From a virus: 46,324 bases of DNA. This document shows, one piece after another, positions 39,495-45,305 of the stretch (position 1 is the stretch's first letter; the number at the start of each line of letters is the position of its first letter). The DNA lies in IMG/VR virus record IMGVR_UViG_3300036782_000034, positions 1-46,324 of that record, one strand, 5' to 3'. The position numbers and the translations under genes were made by a program. Below the pieces are notes generated by a model. The model saw only the letters and a list, made by a program, of their open reading frames with translations, was not told the DNA's origin and did not search any database.

Positions 39495-40724
39495 TTAATA
39501 GATTGACTTAACAGCTCTCGCTTTTCTATTTTCACTTTTCTCTGTGTAAATCGCATAACGTACAGCATCCAAAACATCGTCCCATTCCTTCACTGGTTCG
39601 CCTGTTTTCTCATTCCATACATACATGAACACTTCTTTCTTAAAGCGTTCTACACACTCAGATACAGCTTTAAAACTATCTGTCTTGATGTATTTAGCGA
39701 CCATTTCAATGCCAGATAAGACGGATTTATCGGCGTTTCTTGCTCGTAAACCTTCTCGTTTGAATCGTTTTATATGTTCAGGCCTTGCAGTATCGCAATA
39801 AAAAAAGATGTTGCCATAACGTTCTTTCACGTCTTTAGCTACACCTACCCAGTAATCTATTTCTTCATGTTGTCTTGCGTGTTCTTCTAATAAATATAGA
39901 TTTTCTTTATCGTCTTCACCAATAACAATGATGGACCCGAAATGCTCATAACCCCAATCGACACCAGCAAAGTATTTCGTAAATTTGATATCTTTTAAAT
40001 TAGTTTCTTCTATATAATGTACATTTTTATTGAAGTCTTTATATACAACTCCATCAGCGCTACACCATAAGCCTTTTATATTGCGATCGTAAAACATCCC
40101 ATCAGGAGTAGAAGCCTTAATACGTTCTCTATATCTTTCATTCAAGAATGTATTATCATCTAATTCATATTGAAATGCTTTTATCGTTACATTGTCATCT
40201 TTATCGATGTAATCTGTTTTCAGCCAATGCTCTGGATGGTCTGGGTTCGTATCAACTAATACTCTTGCACCATCTCCGCTACAACGAGACTTAATTTCAT
40301 CGAATACAACCTTATTAGCAAGAGAACCTTCATTCACATAAGCTCCATAAGCAGTCATACCGCGAATGGTATCTAAATGGCTTATCTTAGAATGACCAGT
40401 GCAGCATACAAGGACTCCAAACAATTTGAATCGATTGTATTTATCCATATGAAAATCAATACCGTATTTGTTTGTGAGCTCAATGAGCACATTCTTTGCT
40501 AATGTACCTAAAGATGCACCAGCAAGGATATACTGCGGTAAATCCACACCTTCATTATCAGCAATACGTCTTACTCGTCTTAACTCAGCAAGGAATAGAT
40601 CATTATTTAAGATTGTTTTACCAGTACGTTTCGCACCATGTTGTATTAACATGAAGTAATCATTGTTATAAACGTAATTCAATACTTGTTGTTGTTTCTC
40701 GTTATACAGTTCGTTCATACTCAT
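39495..40724 (-). CDS. terL: Terminase large subunit (PBSX/Terminase_3-like)
   Basis: Walker A HGAKRTGKT, followed by nuclease-domain acidic motifs. 4-nt overlap with terS. Confidence 0.9.
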   Translation of the reverse strand: MSMNELYNEKQQQVLNYVYNNDYFMLIQHGAKRTGKTILNNDLFLAELRRVRRIADNEGVDLPQYILAGASLGTLAKNVLIELTNKYGIDFHMDKYNRFKLFGVLVCCTGHSKISHLDTIRGMTAYGAYVNEGSLANKVVFDEIKSRCSGDGARVLVDTNPDHPEHWLKTDYIDKDDNVTIKAFQYELDDNTFLNERYRERIKASTPDGMFYDRNIKGLWCSADGVVYKDFNKNVHYIEETNLKDIKFTKYFAGVDWGYEHFGSIIVIGEDDKENLYLLEEHARQHEEIDYWVGVAKDVKERYGNIFFYCDTARPEHIKRFKREGLRARNADKSVLSGIEMVAKYIKTDSFKAVSECVERFKKEVFMYVWNEKTGEPVKEWDDVLDAVRYAIYTEKSENRKARAVKSIY

Positions 40725-41557
40725 TTCTTAAACGCACCTTCTAACTTATCCAAGTATTGGCCAATCTTATCTTCAGCAGGATTTTCATCCTTTAATTCAT
40801 TTCTAATCTTATCTATTTGAGCGTTCATCAGATTCAATTTAGCGCGTCTTTCATCATCTATATTAGCTAACTTATCAAAGTCTCTAATAAGAGAAGACAA
40901 CGTGCTCATTGCTCTTGATTGAGCGTTTAAGAATGTAGCGTGTTTGTCCCAAGCAAATTGAATTTCCCATTCTTCTTCAGAAGAACTTCCAGAGTCAGAA
41001 TAACTTTCTTTAGTTTTCTTCAATTCTTTAGTCATATCATCTTGGTCTTTAACAAACATCAATCGTTGAGCTCTAATAATAGCCGTGTACTGAATCGTTA
41101 TGTTTTCCCATAACATATCAATTGGATTCTTCTCCATGATCTCAGCAGCTAAATCAGCAACATCCTCAGGGAAGTGTTTGCGGAAGAAACCGTGAGTAAC
41201 AGCATTATCATTTCCTTTTGGTGGACCATGCCCAACAGCATTCTTATTCCCATACTTAGGATTTTTGTTACCAGAATTACCTATTGCGTTTTGATTTCCT
41301 TTCAATGAAGCGGATAACTTTTGCGAAGTACTACGTTTCTTTTTCGCAGTACTACAATCGTTTTCATTTGCAGTACTACAATCAGAACCATTCAATTTAG
41401 CTACCCATTTGTCTCTAGATTTCCATGAGGAAATTGTTTTCTCTTGCTCTTGAAGAATCTCGGCTATCTTCCGATTTGTGATATCTCCATTATGTTCTTT
41501 ATAAATCTCAAATGCTTTATCTCTATTCGGGCTCCTTGCTTTAGCCACGACCACCAC
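40721..41557 (-). CDS. terS: Terminase small subunit
   Basis: N-terminal HTH-like NRKIAEILQEQEKTISSWKSRDKW and a repeated GN(K/Q/D)NA(V/I)GH/THG motif, as in PBSX-type small terminases. GTG start. Confidence 0.75.
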   Translation of the reverse strand: MVVVAKARSPNRDKAFEIYKEHNGDITNRKIAEILQEQEKTISSWKSRDKWVAKLNGSDCSTANENDCSTAKKKRSTSQKLSASLKGNQNAIGNSGNKNPKYGNKNAVGHGPPKGNDNAVTHGFFRKHFPEDVADLAAEIMEKNPIDMLWENITIQYTAIIRAQRLMFVKDQDDMTKELKKTKESYSDSGSSSEEEWEIQFAWDKHATFLNAQSRAMSTLSSLIRDFDKLANIDDERRAKLNLMNAQIDKIRNELKDENPAEDKIGQYLDKLEGAFKK

Positions 41558-43206: not shown

Positions 43207-43446
43207 TCAATCCCAAAATCTTTCTGCTGCTTTCTTACCTAAATAAGCGAATAAGCCTTTCACAACAATAGCTAATACCCATACTATCGAACTAATCGTA
43301 AACACTGTCATATAACTAACATCCAATTTAAAGATGAAACTAACAATCCACGCCAAACCTAGCCAAGTAGCTGACCACATTCCAAATGAAATAATAAGCA
43401 ATCCTAATACAGCAAAAGTAAATACTGCTCCTAATCCTTTCAACAT
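43207..43446 (-). CDS. Small integral membrane protein (79 aa, 2-3 TM helices)
   Basis: ORF track. AAGGAGGAG RBS. Strongly hydrophobic. Confidence 0.55.
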   Translation of the reverse strand: MLKGLGAVFTFAVLGLLIISFGMWSATWLGLAWIVSFIFKLDVSYMTVFTISSIVWVLAIVVKGLFAYLGKKAAERFWD

Positions 43447-43520
43447 TTTCTCATCTCCTCCTTAACAACAAACAAGACGCCACCCAGATCACGGCAGCGC
43501 CTACGAGAATTGCTATTGGT

Positions 43521-43799
43521 TTAATTATTAAAAGTAGATAAATAGCTTTGAATTTTAGCAAATGAATCGCCATAAGTAAATCCAGTAATACGAATACCTT
43601 TAGCGAATTTGTGGTTTAAATTCTCGTCATACGTTTTCTTATAATACTCTAGCTTATCAGCGATATTAGCTCGACTATTAATAATAACCTCCGCATCATT
43701 GAATCCTTCCATTTCGATTAACACACCTATGTAATCCGTATTATTAGTGATAGCAAAGTTAAAGCAAATCTCCATTTGTTCAAATGTACAATCCATCAT
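43521..43799 (-). CDS. Hypothetical protein (92 aa)
   Basis: ORF track. TAGGAGGATGA RBS region. Confidence 0.55.
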   Translation of the reverse strand: MMDCTFEQMEICFNFAITNNTDYIGVLIEMEGFNDAEVIINSRANIADKLEYYKKTYDENLNHKFAKGIRITGFTYGDSFAKIQSYLSTFNN

Positions 43800-43833
43800 T
43801 CATCCTCCTAATCAAATGTCCATTTTGTTCAAT

Positions 43834-43858
43834 AAAAAAAGAACACTATAAAGTGTCC
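43834..43858 (-). terminator. Strong minus-strand intrinsic terminator closing the ORF-free region
   Basis: Minus strand reads GGACACU-UUAU-AGUGUUC followed by U7. The G-U pair is an A-C mismatch on plus. Confidence 0.7.
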
Positions 43859-44713
43859 TAAGCTTCTGAGTATAAGGTATACGACAATGCCTTGCCCGTT
43901 CTAATGGTGCAACATAAAAGAGCTTTATAGCGGAATATATATAGCTCTCGGAAAAGGAATAAGTTGGTTGGCATTGACTCGATATTGTATGTTTGGGAAT
44001 TCCTTATGTGCAATAAAGAAGAGACCTATAAGGTACTCGTCCGATACGATTATAAAGAATGAATACATCGTGTTCAGTTTATTAGTATATGCTTGTCTCA
44101 TTCAAATTTTTACTGGTTTAATGTGTAATTTCTATATAACAAAGAAAATTATTCTTTCTAGACCCGGAACTAACATACATATTGGCTAATTCCTGGTTTA
44201 CAAAAAACAAAAATCCATCACCGAAGTGACAGCTTTCAAGGGGATGGGAGAAAAGAGAGAAAACAAATGGCAAAGTTTCTCTTAGATCAAGGCTGAGTAC
44301 TCTCAACCTTCTCCAAATCACCGCATCAACATCATATGGCTACACGCCTTGCGTTCGGTTAATTCGGTGACTGGGAGAAGACTAAGAATCTTCTCGTTTA
44401 TACTCCGTAGAGTCGGCTACTTAATGTCATTTTCACCAATTTCTTTTACACAATGTGATTATATCTAGAGGGAATGTGTTTATTCCGTCCCCCTTGTTTG
44501 AACCAATACACAAGACTGAGGGGAATGTTCAGCTGCATTGGCTCAAACAAAGAGCGGAAGCTCTCTGCTCGTTTAGACCTATATTTTTTAGAACGCTATA
44601 GTTCATCCAATCGAACGAACCATCACCACATTTGTAAAACGACCCATCTCGAAATCAAGACCTTGAAAGTAGTTTCCGCTACCTCTCAGTAATAATAGTG
44701 TATCACCTAAATA
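43859..44713 (-). ncRNA. Candidate large structured non-coding RNA or structured leader (~0.5-0.85 kb)
   Basis: No ORF with an RBS. Visibly higher GC in about 44210-44700. Minus-strand-specific helices at 44544-44571 (12 bp, 3 G-U), 44215-44232 (cUUCGg tetraloop), 44291-44308 and 44375-44395. Ends at the 43834-43858 terminator. Confidence 0.45.
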
Positions 44714-45169
44714 TCAAGAACAGTGTGTCATCGTTGTGGCATGATTGTGGCTTCTTTTCATTTTGCTGCTCACTCTTCTAATATGGTCATAGCTATAACC
44801 TAACTCACTAGCAACCTGTTTTAAATTGAATCCCATTACATCTCGCAAATAAATAATCTGTTGTTCTAGCCCCTTCTTCTTACTCATAACAAACTGCGCT
44901 TCCCCCATTAATACTTTCTTATCAACAATACGTTGTTTTAATCGTTCTGACTTCTCCATAATACGATCATGACGACCTGCTATTTCATCTAATGCCAATG
45001 GAATTTGTCCACCTGTTACACGGTCTTTGCTGTAGTCTGTTACTCCATTAAACTTAGGTGCATTCATATGCATATTTTTAATCAGGTATTTATGTTCTAA
45101 CTTCAGGTCCTTTAATTCAATCTCCATTAATTCAATTTCTTCTCCTAAGTTTTGATAAATGTTTGTCAT
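44714..45169 (-). CDS. Late-gene transcriptional regulator, sigma-70 region-4-like HTH (ArpU/RinA/DUF1492 type)
   Basis: C-terminal EQQIIYLRDVMGFNLKQVASELGYSYDHIRRVSSKM resembles sigma region 4. Size and position upstream of the packaging genes fit. Confidence 0.6.
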   Translation of the reverse strand: MTNIYQNLGEEIELMEIELKDLKLEHKYLIKNMHMNAPKFNGVTDYSKDRVTGGQIPLALDEIAGRHDRIMEKSERLKQRIVDKKVLMGEAQFVMSKKKGLEQQIIYLRDVMGFNLKQVASELGYSYDHIRRVSSKMKRSHNHATTMTHCS

Positions 45170-45201
45170 GGTAAATCCCCCTATTTCGAATTTGTCTTTT
45201 T

Positions 45202-45262
45202 AACATCACATAAGGTACGTGAAATTTTACTATCTCATTGTTGAATAAGGGAACATCACATA
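45202..45262. repeat. Two copies of the 11-bp direct repeat AACATCACATA, 50 bp apart, upstream of the late regulator gene
   Basis: Copies at 45202-45212 and 45252-45262, read directly. Confidence 0.6.
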
Positions 45263-45305
45263 GTAAGTAGCCCCCACCATCTACTTTGCATTGTTCCGTT
45301 ATCCA

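Follow-up and report, generated by a model that had tools for sequence, protein, structure and literature searches.

The window analysed here, i.e., the whole 46,324-nucleotide (nt) stretch of DNA that makes up the IMG/VR virus record IMGVR_UViG_3300036782_000034, is a temperate siphophage or plasmid-prophage of the Bacillus cereus group. The core of the gap that separates the gene of its late regulator from its late genes is a genuine structured non-coding RNA of the minus strand, whose reality, strand, boundaries, family and modular build are established by the comparisons given below. Its short form, which is the one present in the window, occupies 44201..44645 (minus strand), as delimited by the homology map, the fold z-score and a covariance model (R1). 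This includes a widely conserved core at 44574..44201 and a 5′ extension to about 44645 that is common to fewer relatives, for an RNA length of ~375-445 nt. To judge from its sequence, the 3′ module of this RNA (a hairpin, a single-stranded C-rich tail and a terminator) appears to be a diverged relative of the host small RNA (sRNA) RsaE/RoxS. We tentatively favour, at somewhat less than even confidence, a role as a phage RsaE-like base-pairing regulator, in which RsaE-type C-rich seeds would be carried by a large structured scaffold and expressed with the late regulator.

A family of structured RNAs on the minus strand

Covariation was assessed in an unconstrained MAFFT alignment of 58 distinct sequences, using as controls 500 shuffles and slid partner columns. 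The 21 pairs of the helices H2 and H3 are 99.4% canonical, and 9 of these pairs, amounting to 78 cells, changed on both sides. None of the 500 shuffles reached these values, and sliding the partner columns left only 23-47% of the cells paired. G-U accounts for ~10% of the H2/H3 cells, with two positions being G-U in 47 and 50 sequences. Since these pairs become A-C mismatches on the other strand, the sense of the RNA is that of the minus strand. A first-pass annotation of the window, made from the sequence without database searches, had read this strand specificity from a few helices, and it is confirmed by the fold z-score of a 391-nt stretch (-4.75 on the minus strand vs -2.41 on the plus strand). 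The model R1, which was built on domain III (H5-H8) with the window sequence in its seed alignment, finds a single copy in the window (44284..44414), with 119.5 bits on the minus strand vs 14.5 on the plus strand.

The motif scan of IMG/VR gave at least 119 stretches, and the family counts below rest on the matches listed. When the 126 motif-bearing sequences (the IMG/VR matches listed, phage records and the window) were compared, about 117 proved to be true homologues, with 69-100% identity. The first-pass annotation had proposed such a collection as the way to look for covariation, and it yielded both the homologues and a covariation of H2/H3 beyond that of any shuffle. Members outside the R1 seed score 60.8-163 bits, including CUBc25 (62.4 bits) and BMBtp3 (60.8 bits). 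The model recovers divergent members missed by BLAST, i.e., BMBtp3, where the RNA follows the gene of a sigma-like factor, and the locus L114. Among species-representative genomes, the motif was found in 17 contigs of the B. cereus group, many of them ~50-54 kilobases (kb) long, from B. cereus, B. thuringiensis, B. mycoides, B. luti, B. dicomae, B. hominis, B. pacificus, B. tropicus and unnamed Bacillus; all those checked with R1 score 67-163 bits. The 12 motif matches in unrelated taxa are close to the chance expectation, and 11 of them have no R1 match. The twelfth (L154, NZ_JBJLWK010000024.1, labelled Chryseobacterium proteolyticum; 865 nt, coverage 0.97) scores 75.9 bits, and its RNA copy is most likely a contamination from a B. 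cereus-group phage. The family RNA always lies after a late-regulator gene and upstream of an invariant 33-nt element.

We found no coding signal in the core: variability is flat across codon positions and no open reading frame (ORF) is conserved in the relatives. The core is 358-611 nt long, its lengths fall in every residue class modulo 3, and the longest stretches without a stop codon have a median size of 49 amino acids (aa). Protein-like conservation, named in the first-pass annotation as a sign that would speak against an RNA, was thus searched for in these relatives, and codon periodicity was absent. One could still explain the gap without any RNA gene, as a decayed protein-coding gene or as an element acting at the level of DNA (packaging site, origin, or region bound by the regulator). 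The proximity of the packaging module would fit a DNA element, as would the very high nucleotide conservation of the 33-nt element and of the 5′ part carried by relatives. This explanation is very improbable. The compensatory changes include G-U pairs that are valid on one strand only, the model scores are strand-asymmetric, the terminator is conserved in function and not in sequence, and the region is away from the ends of linear phage records; a decayed gene is further opposed by the lack of codon periodicity and of a conserved ORF.

No family of Rfam 15 covers the core, be it in the window at the gathering threshold or in the regions 43400..45300 and 44150..44350 at E ≤ 10, and low-stringency scans of the window region gave only meaningless weak matches. 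The first-pass annotation, which could not assign the region to a known family by eye, had suggested this check; it returned no matching family. In the literature on 0105phi7-2, the phIS3501 prophage, the bcr repeats, DUF3800 and RsaE/RoxS, we found no description of the RNA or of a phage-borne RsaE-like RNA, although such an absence is not proof. The core RNA is an uncatalogued family, and all that Rfam 15 contains of these loci is one variant of the terminator region (DUF3800-VIII).

Hairpins, exchangeable parts and two forms

The RNA folds into about nine hairpins (all coordinates are on the minus strand) and has two unpaired C-rich stretches: ACAUUCCCC, in the apical loop of H2, and UUCUCCCAUCCCCUU, between H9 and the terminator. 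At the 5′ end, a G-rich segment GUGGUGAUGG is followed by a small hairpin UUC-GAUU-GGA (44601..44633). In relatives, the homologous element consists of AAUGGGG(A/G)UGG and a hairpin NNCA-UGAU-UGNN, the stem of which covaries (UUCA/UGAA, CUCA/UGAG, UUUA/UAAA, UCCA/UGGA). The hairpin H1 (CAGAGAGC-UUCC-GCUCUUUG, 44548..44567) has 8 base pairs (bp), and in the variant CAAAGAGU/ACUCUUUG its closing C-G is changed to U-A and one G-U to A-U. The first-pass annotation had drawn here a 12-bp helix (44544..44571), but its last bases belong to H2 (44496..44548), where a covarying 14-bp basal helix carries an apical hairpin GCUGA/UCAGU. The 14 pairs of H2 are 99.9% paired, and 5 of them changed on both sides. 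The unpaired C-rich loop (44528..44520) sits atop the apical hairpin, whose stem has the variants GCGGAA/UUCCGU, GUGGAG/CUCCAU and GACAG/CUGUC; each examined variant displays an unpaired C-rich stretch. In H3 (AGGGGGA-CGGAAUAAACACAU-UCCCUCU, 44467..44494), which has a conserved GGAA-containing loop, 4 of the 7 pairs changed on both sides (AAGGCGU/ACGUCUU, GGCAC/GUGUC and others). Two near-repeats, ACAUUCCC(C)UC(A/U)AG, had been noticed in the window; they are real, correspond to the apical loop of H2 and the 3′ strand of H3, and are specific to the window's subtype.

A conserved GAUAUAA (44465..44459) precedes a variable region with the hairpin H4 (44413..44439), where GAA stands opposite AGUA. 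The GAA...AGUA arrangement recurs in relatives around different apical sequences and resembles, by eye, a loop-E/S-turn-like motif. The pair at alignment columns 3-12, in H5 (ACUC-UACG-GAGU, 44402..44413), is C-G in 49 sequences and G-C in 8. The 3′ strand of H6 (GAGAAGA-UUCUUAG-UCUUCUC, 44375..44395) can alternatively pair with GGAGAAG (44314..44308) to give a long H7, and both pairings are satisfied at ~99% and invariant. H7 itself (CCAGUCACCG...CGGUGAUUUGG, 44313..44374) encloses a variable internal domain and is 98.6% paired, with one-sided changes only (U-G, C-G and U-A, columns 45-115). In the window, this internal region contains a 9-nt tandem duplication, ACCGAAUUA-ACCGAAC (ACCGAATTA-ACCGAAC; 44368..44353), found otherwise only in L119 among the aligned sequences. 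Finally, H8 (GGUUGAG-AGUA-CUCAGCC, 44291..44308) is replaced in relatives by GGAUAAGAA/UUUUUAUCC, GAGUA/UACUC or GGUUGAGA/UCUCAAUC. H6, H8 and the hairpin at 44215..44232 had all been seen in the first-pass annotation; they exist and are conserved.

These exchanges make the RNA modular. The stems of H1, H5, H8 and of the apical part of H2 are replaced by different but complementary sequences, and other stretches are invariant in sequence, including GAUAUAA, ACGGAGUAUAAACGAGAAG and GAUGCGGUGGCUUGGAGAAGG. In other phages, the loop of H6 takes structured inserts of 40-150 nt, and the H2 loop and the region after GAUAUAA also take structured inserts, from tens of nt to ~150 nt. The relative L100 (IMGVR_UViG_3300030497_000372) has a ~70-nt insert in the H2 loop, with two hairpins, GGTTCAATTCC and GGTTCGATTCC, that are like the T-arm of transfer RNA (tRNA); its H2 stem is fully re-paired (GAGGUAACAG/CUGUUACCUC) and ARAGORN calls no tRNA there. 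Two longer-range contacts were also considered. A closing helix between 5′ GGGGAUGG and 3′ CCAUCCCC was rejected: the two sides are near-invariant, the few variants (e.g., L013, L026, L050 and the window) break the pairing instead of compensating, and the 5′ segment is absent from many members. The kissing of the H1 loop (UUCC) with the H3 loop (GGAA) is 99.4% paired, which is no better than in shuffles.

The family occurs in two forms. Of the 105 members with enough upstream sequence, 85 (~81%) have an extra 5′ part of ~420 nt, which the window and the other ~19% lack; in IEBH, the conserved ORF-free block reaches ~850 nt (L001 2300..3150). This 5′ part (L001 2236..2530) starts at a sharply conserved ACAAGCCCUUUGACAACCGCAUAUCGAAGAGG... 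(ACAAGCCCTTTGACAACCGCATATCGAAGAGG), has a median identity to IEBH of 96.7% and is better conserved than the rest of the RNA. It is preceded by 11-nt-phased direct repeats that are specific to each phage: CGGATAA, CGACAAAA, GCAGAGAAA or GCGAACAAAA. It contains an 18-bp hairpin followed by TTTCTAATTT, and a GGGGGA...ATG before it opens short ORFs, in different frames in different phages. Rfam gave no match for the long-form 5′ part of the relatives, which may be an RNA gene in its own right, or else the 5′ domain of a single RNA of ~850 nt.

The 3′ module and its likeness to RsaE/RoxS

In the window, the 3′ module comprises the hairpin H9, in its alpha variant (AGAGAAAC-UUUGCCAUUUG-UUUUCUCU, 44256..44282), the single-stranded C-rich tail (44238..44252), which is the proposed seed, and the hairpin CUGUCAC-UUCG-GUGAUGG followed by AUUUUUGUUUUUUG (44201..44232). 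The cUUCGg hairpin at 44215..44232 is immediately followed by AUUUUUGUUUUUUG and is therefore the RNA's own intrinsic terminator. Comparison of 111 distinct 3′ modules revealed three main variants of H9: alpha (65, including the window), beta (25) and gamma (10), the remaining 11 being of other types. Their loops differ: alpha has UUUGCCAUUUG, beta has UUCCCCU, and beta/gamma carry UUCCCCU or AUCCCCUU. The tail is identical to 15 consecutive positions of the Rfam consensus of RsaE/RoxS (RF01820). The exact 15-mer is present in 61 of the 111 modules, some C-rich motif is present in 100 of them, and we found no conserved pairing partner for the tail. The gamma copies match positions 1-112 of RF01820 with 45-56 bits (E = 2e-6 to 7e-5), which is significant but below the gathering score of 79.

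RsaE/RoxS is reported as a conserved Firmicute sRNA that lowers the messenger RNAs (mRNAs) of the tricarboxylic acid (TCA) cycle, folate and arginine catabolism by interacting directly with G-rich motifs of its targets (PMC6158497, PMC4409812). It has the same order of parts as the phage 3′ module, i.e., a hairpin, a single-stranded C-rich region and an intrinsic terminator, and its single-stranded UCCC/CCCC motif is found in the phage tail (44252..44238). Alignment to the full model, including the ACCCCUU-type loop, is seen only in related phages and not in the window copy. There are also differences of context: RsaE/RoxS is a stand-alone gene of ~100 nt with its own regulated promoter, whereas the phage module is the 3′ end of a 375-850-nt RNA, has no recognisable promoter of its own and directly continues a conserved upstream structure of at least 280 nt.

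The terminator position is always occupied across the family, but by unrelated sequences: type 1 in 77 of the 111 modules, type 2 in 12 and others in 22. In PfNC7401 (L003 3337..3399), the terminator hairpin is replaced by a DUF3800-VIII RNA (RF03075; 60.4 bits vs a gathering score of 40.2), a class that ends in a terminator and here occupies exactly the terminator position. The locus L105 likewise has DUF3800-VIII in place of the simple terminator hairpin. Hence, the DUF3800-VIII motif of Rfam is, at least in PfNC7401 and L105, the terminator module of a much larger RNA, and the match in PfNC7401 means that a fragment of this type of locus had already been catalogued. DUF3800-VIII was not found in the window, which has a plain hairpin terminator, and the H1-H9 core is outside that Rfam family. 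Because terminators are exchanged while the core is unchanged, they point to a constitutive terminator on a discrete RNA rather than to a riboswitch-like platform. By the same token, the 5′ strand of the terminator has no covarying conserved partner upstream, as it would in a riboswitch or attenuator.

The RNA could instead be an ornate RNA with a protein-binding, scaffolding or biochemical role that is independent of base pairing, akin to ROOL, GOLLD, raiA or the RNAs associated with DUF3800. In that case, the C-rich stretches would be tertiary or quaternary contacts, and the likeness to RsaE would be incidental or the mark of a captured terminator module. The long forms of up to ~850 nt, the stretches invariant in sequence, the S-turn-like motif, the T-loop-like inserts of one relative and the modular design with swappable peripheral hairpins are in line with such a role. 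A survey of 224 motifs also described several that are highly conserved, terminator-followed and without known function (PMC5737381), and the 3′ end in PfNC7401 is itself DUF3800-VIII. As a large, highly structured, prophage-borne non-coding RNA with variable peripheral domains, it recalls ROOL and GOLLD, with which the first-pass annotation had compared it. The comparison fails on model scores: the ROOL and GOLLD covariance models matched neither the window nor five relatives with either cut-off (gathering threshold, E ≤ 10), and there is no similarity to any large-RNA model of Rfam. ARAGORN found no tRNA genes in the window or in four relatives, unlike the frequent adjacency of ROOL/GOLLD to such genes; ROOL and GOLLD also belong to a host clade other than the B. 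cereus group, and the window copy is only ~0.4 kb long. Moreover, covariation is absent from the contacts that were tested (loop of H1 with loop of H3, G-rich 5′ segment with C-rich 3′ tail), and the best-conserved section, the 5′ part, is missing from the short form of the window. We therefore regard an ornate RNA of this kind as rather improbable.

Genomic setting and candidate functions

The DNA surrounding the gap matches eight phages: IEBH, vB_BceS_LY4, 250, PfNC7401, PfIS075, 0105phi7-2, CUBc25 and BMBtp3. On the minus strand, a DUF1064/resolvase-like gene is followed by the 151-aa regulator (44714..45169), the gap, several small genes and the small terminase subunit (40721..41557). The gap spans 914 nt from the stop codon of the regulator to the next ATG (44713..43800, the ATG being at 43799), and not the 855 nt given in the first-pass annotation, which was right in that no credible gene lies within it. 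The three ORFs named there are present, with several shorter ones, and none of them is conserved in relatives. The higher GC content noticed there also holds, with 0.40-0.425 over 44200..44700 vs 0.305-0.36 in the flanks.

Mapping the window onto its relatives divides the gap into six pieces, and the gap is a composite of separate elements rather than one 0.85-kb RNA. The flank (44713..44575) is common to only 6-11 loci, although its distal part (44633..44601) is homologous in most relatives, and the conserved block (44574..44201) is kept in 70-110 loci. Then come a spacer inverted repeat (44197..44162; ~20 loci), the 33-nt element (44148..44116; 100% identical in ~80 loci), an insertion (43833..44107), and the ribosome-binding site and start of the first downstream gene (43794..43811; 92 aa, phrog_3915). 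The proposal of a large structured non-coding RNA is thus upheld by covariation, loop inserts and a strand-specific model score, but over ~375-445 nt instead of 0.85 kb. The remaining ~370 nt (the spacer hairpin, the 33-nt element, the 275-nt insertion and the ribosome-binding site of the next gene) are not part of the RNA core. Similarly, the terminator at 43834, which had been taken for the end of the region, belongs to the separate insertion, and the RNA ends at 44232..44201.

The regulator gene was called as an ORF (44714..45169) encoding a 151-aa protein with a sigma region-4-like helix-turn-helix. It belongs to phrog_36 (transcriptional regulator), and its match to Sigma70_r4 has 22.8 bits, under the cut-off of 24.1. 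The arrangement of the window, where an r4-like regulator gene abuts the RNA, is found in five other loci. The minus strand was found to be free of promoter-like and terminator-like sites in 44575..44713, and of promoter-like sites in 44714-44233. Since no such site separates them, the RNA is probably co-transcribed with the regulator as the 3′ untranslated region (UTR) of its mRNA, which would be the simplest reading. Upstream of the regulator, the intergenic region 45170..45305 is conserved in ~85 loci, even those with a regulator of a different family, and contains two direct copies of TATGTGATGTT (45262..45252 and 45212..45202) 50 nt apart; it is probably an operator/promoter region.

Downstream of the RNA, the spacer inverted repeat ACCAGGAAUUAGCC...GUUAGUUCCGGGU (ACCAGGAATTAG...GTTAGTTCCGGG; 44162..44197) is imperfect, has 12 bp and is shared with ~20 relatives. 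It lies outside of the RNA core and has changes in both arms in relatives (CTAGGGA/TTCCTAG). It may act as RNA, in the form of a hairpin, or as DNA, in the form of an operator that precedes the -10-like site by ~45 bp. That site is part of the 33-nt element, UUUUCUUUGUUAUAUAGAAAUUACACAUUAAAC (TTTTCTTTGTTATATAGAAATTACACATTAAAC; 44116..44148), which is identical in ~80 otherwise mosaic phages, including the Waukeshavirus BMBtp3, and which is made of a U-tract and then an extended -10-like TGTTATATA. In 103 of 105 loci, the element is found on the strand of the RNA and downstream of it, at a distance of 95-861 nt from the motif; it has no further copies in the window and may be a late promoter region. 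At the equivalent spot after the RNA terminator, some phages have a perfect TGTTATAAT.

The ~275-nt insertion (43833..44107) is absent from IEBH, LY4, 250 and CUBc25, where 44108 is joined directly to 43830 and the 33-nt element almost adjoins the ribosome-binding site of the next gene. Among the loci compared, it is common only to L044, L075 and L119 (95%), and L092 has part of it. It carries a promoter-like TGAACA-16-TATAAT (44076..44049) and a terminator (43859..43834), has a fold z-score of -2.9 and contains no ORF with a ribosome-binding site. Similar sequences, ATTTGAAT and TATTGAAC, flank it. Its terminator separates the late genes from the putative late promoter, and the whole element may represent either a small mobile insertion or a second small RNA. 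Further downstream, a 71-nt block (core 43459..43529 within 43451..43573) is 91-95% identical in ~95 loci despite differing flanking genes. In relatives, it starts with an ATG and is read as a hydrophobic peptide of ~26-30 aa (MIKPIAIIVGAAVIWVASCLLLRKDK...). The window has ATA in place of this ATG, and an upstream in-frame ATG makes the peptide part of a 40-aa ORF. The block resembled a GC-rich terminator hairpin, and a conserved 'terminator' at 43475..43502 was considered as evidence of antitermination and rejected, as it falls inside this conserved ORF for a small hydrophobic/membrane peptide.

The fixed position of the RNA bears on a different explanation, that of a leader or insulator of the late operon acting in cis. 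The structure would control the read-through of its own terminator and of those downstream, by a processive antitermination like that of put/EAR or in an arrangement like lambda pR′-6S/Q, or it would insulate the late genes from early transcription. The transcript that contains it would begin at the regulator gene and head for the late genes; in long-form phages, it would begin at a promoter marked by the direct repeats specific to each phage. Because the RNA is always upstream of the 33-nt element and on the same strand (103/105), a role in cis remains a serious rival, even if we deem it unlikely. This position and orientation between the late regulator and the 33-nt element are kept whatever the type of regulator (ArpU, sigma-like factor or r4-like). 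The long-form block starts right after the phage-specific 11-nt-phased repeats, as would be expected for binding sites of the adjacent regulator, and the competing segments GAGAAG, CUUCUCC, GGAGAAG and UUUCUCC permit alternative pairings. Furthermore, the target of RinA/ArpU-type activators is reported to be a promoter that precedes terS (PMC3152322, PMC3753634).

In HK022 put, B. subtilis EAR and lambda pR′-6S/tR′, a structured RNA likewise lies between late regulator and late genes and ends at a terminator. Yet, the phage RNA has no sequence or structure match to them, nor to any antitermination family of Rfam at E ≤ 10, and its promoter-like 33-nt element is downstream of the RNA, not upstream. 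Its terminator module is freely exchanged: terminators are swapped for unrelated hairpins without a matching change in the core, which argues against a conserved antiterminator pairing. Genes can also intervene, since, in several phages, the stretch between the terminator and the 33-nt element holds an annotated ORF or genes with a promoter of their own (TGnTATAAT, ribosome-binding site, ATG), and the spacing between the RNA and this element varies from 95 to 861 nt. As the supposed late-operon terminator at 43475..43502 is within the membrane-peptide ORF, no conserved downstream terminator needing antitermination is established, although the window-specific one (43859..43834) exists. The swapping of unrelated terminators on the same core and the intervening genes weaken the leader or antitermination alternative that the first-pass annotation had put forward.

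We favour the base-pairing model because it explains why the seed is invariant, why hairpin, seed and terminator keep their layout, and why unpaired C-runs are displayed repeatedly. In this model, the RNA would be the end of the early/regulatory transcription unit, as the 3′ UTR of the mRNA of the sigma-r4-like regulator, and would end at its own terminator just upstream of the promoter-like 33-nt element, which is itself followed by the genes for packaging and the late genes. Its exposed C-rich motifs would pair with G-rich Shine-Dalgarno regions of mRNAs, as RsaE/RoxS does on genes of the TCA cycle, redox and amino-acid catabolism. Around the time when late gene expression sets in, this phage-made mimic of RsaE would thereby redirect the metabolism of the host. 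As for the large structured domain on the 5′ side, it could be a scaffold, a stability element or a processing platform. Both the action in trans by base pairing and its targets are inferred from the sequence.

Several observations weigh against this model. The 3′ module of the window has no RsaE match even at E ≤ 10, and its H9 loop UUUGCCAUUUG lacks the CCCC motif, in contrast to the ACCCCUU apical loop of RsaE, so that the link to RsaE rests on the 15-mer, on the layout and on positional homology with the variants of other phages. The unconstrained minimum-free-energy fold of the window copy pairs the tail with the G-rich 5′ strand of H3. Phage-internal matches to the C-rich seed are at chance level and include no convincing target. 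The strict position and orientation upstream of the 33-nt element (103/105 loci) fit a role in cis at least as well. Finally, RsaE function needs ~100 nt, and the model leaves unexplained both the ~300-750 nt of conserved upstream structure and the better-conserved ~420-nt 5′ part found in 81% of the relatives and lacking in the window.

A bolder version of the base-pairing model, which we consider doubtful, would see in these phages a chimeric RNA of 0.4-0.9 kb. Its 3′ end would be a host RsaE/RoxS that was captured and then diversified, giving the phage control of the regulon at a time set with the late regulator. To this, the large and highly conserved 5′ domains would contribute a function without precedent among known sRNAs, for instance sensing, scaffolding or controlled processing. 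What is new is the fusion, in phages, of an RsaE-related sRNA-like module to a new large structured domain. If the base-pairing model holds, the phages would clearly be mimicking, with an RNA of their own, a regulatory RNA that is conserved in their hosts. The RNA also offers a concrete and testable handle on how host metabolism might be rewired by the prophages and plasmid-prophages of the B. cereus, B. thuringiensis and B. anthracis group at the early-to-late switch. The family is a widespread and sizeable group of structured RNAs missed by current catalogues, and its swappable hairpins, terminators and C-rich loops are a natural series of variants for the study of sRNA evolution. Even if its link to RsaE were incidental, the family would be well suited to studies of how large phage RNAs are structured and what they do.

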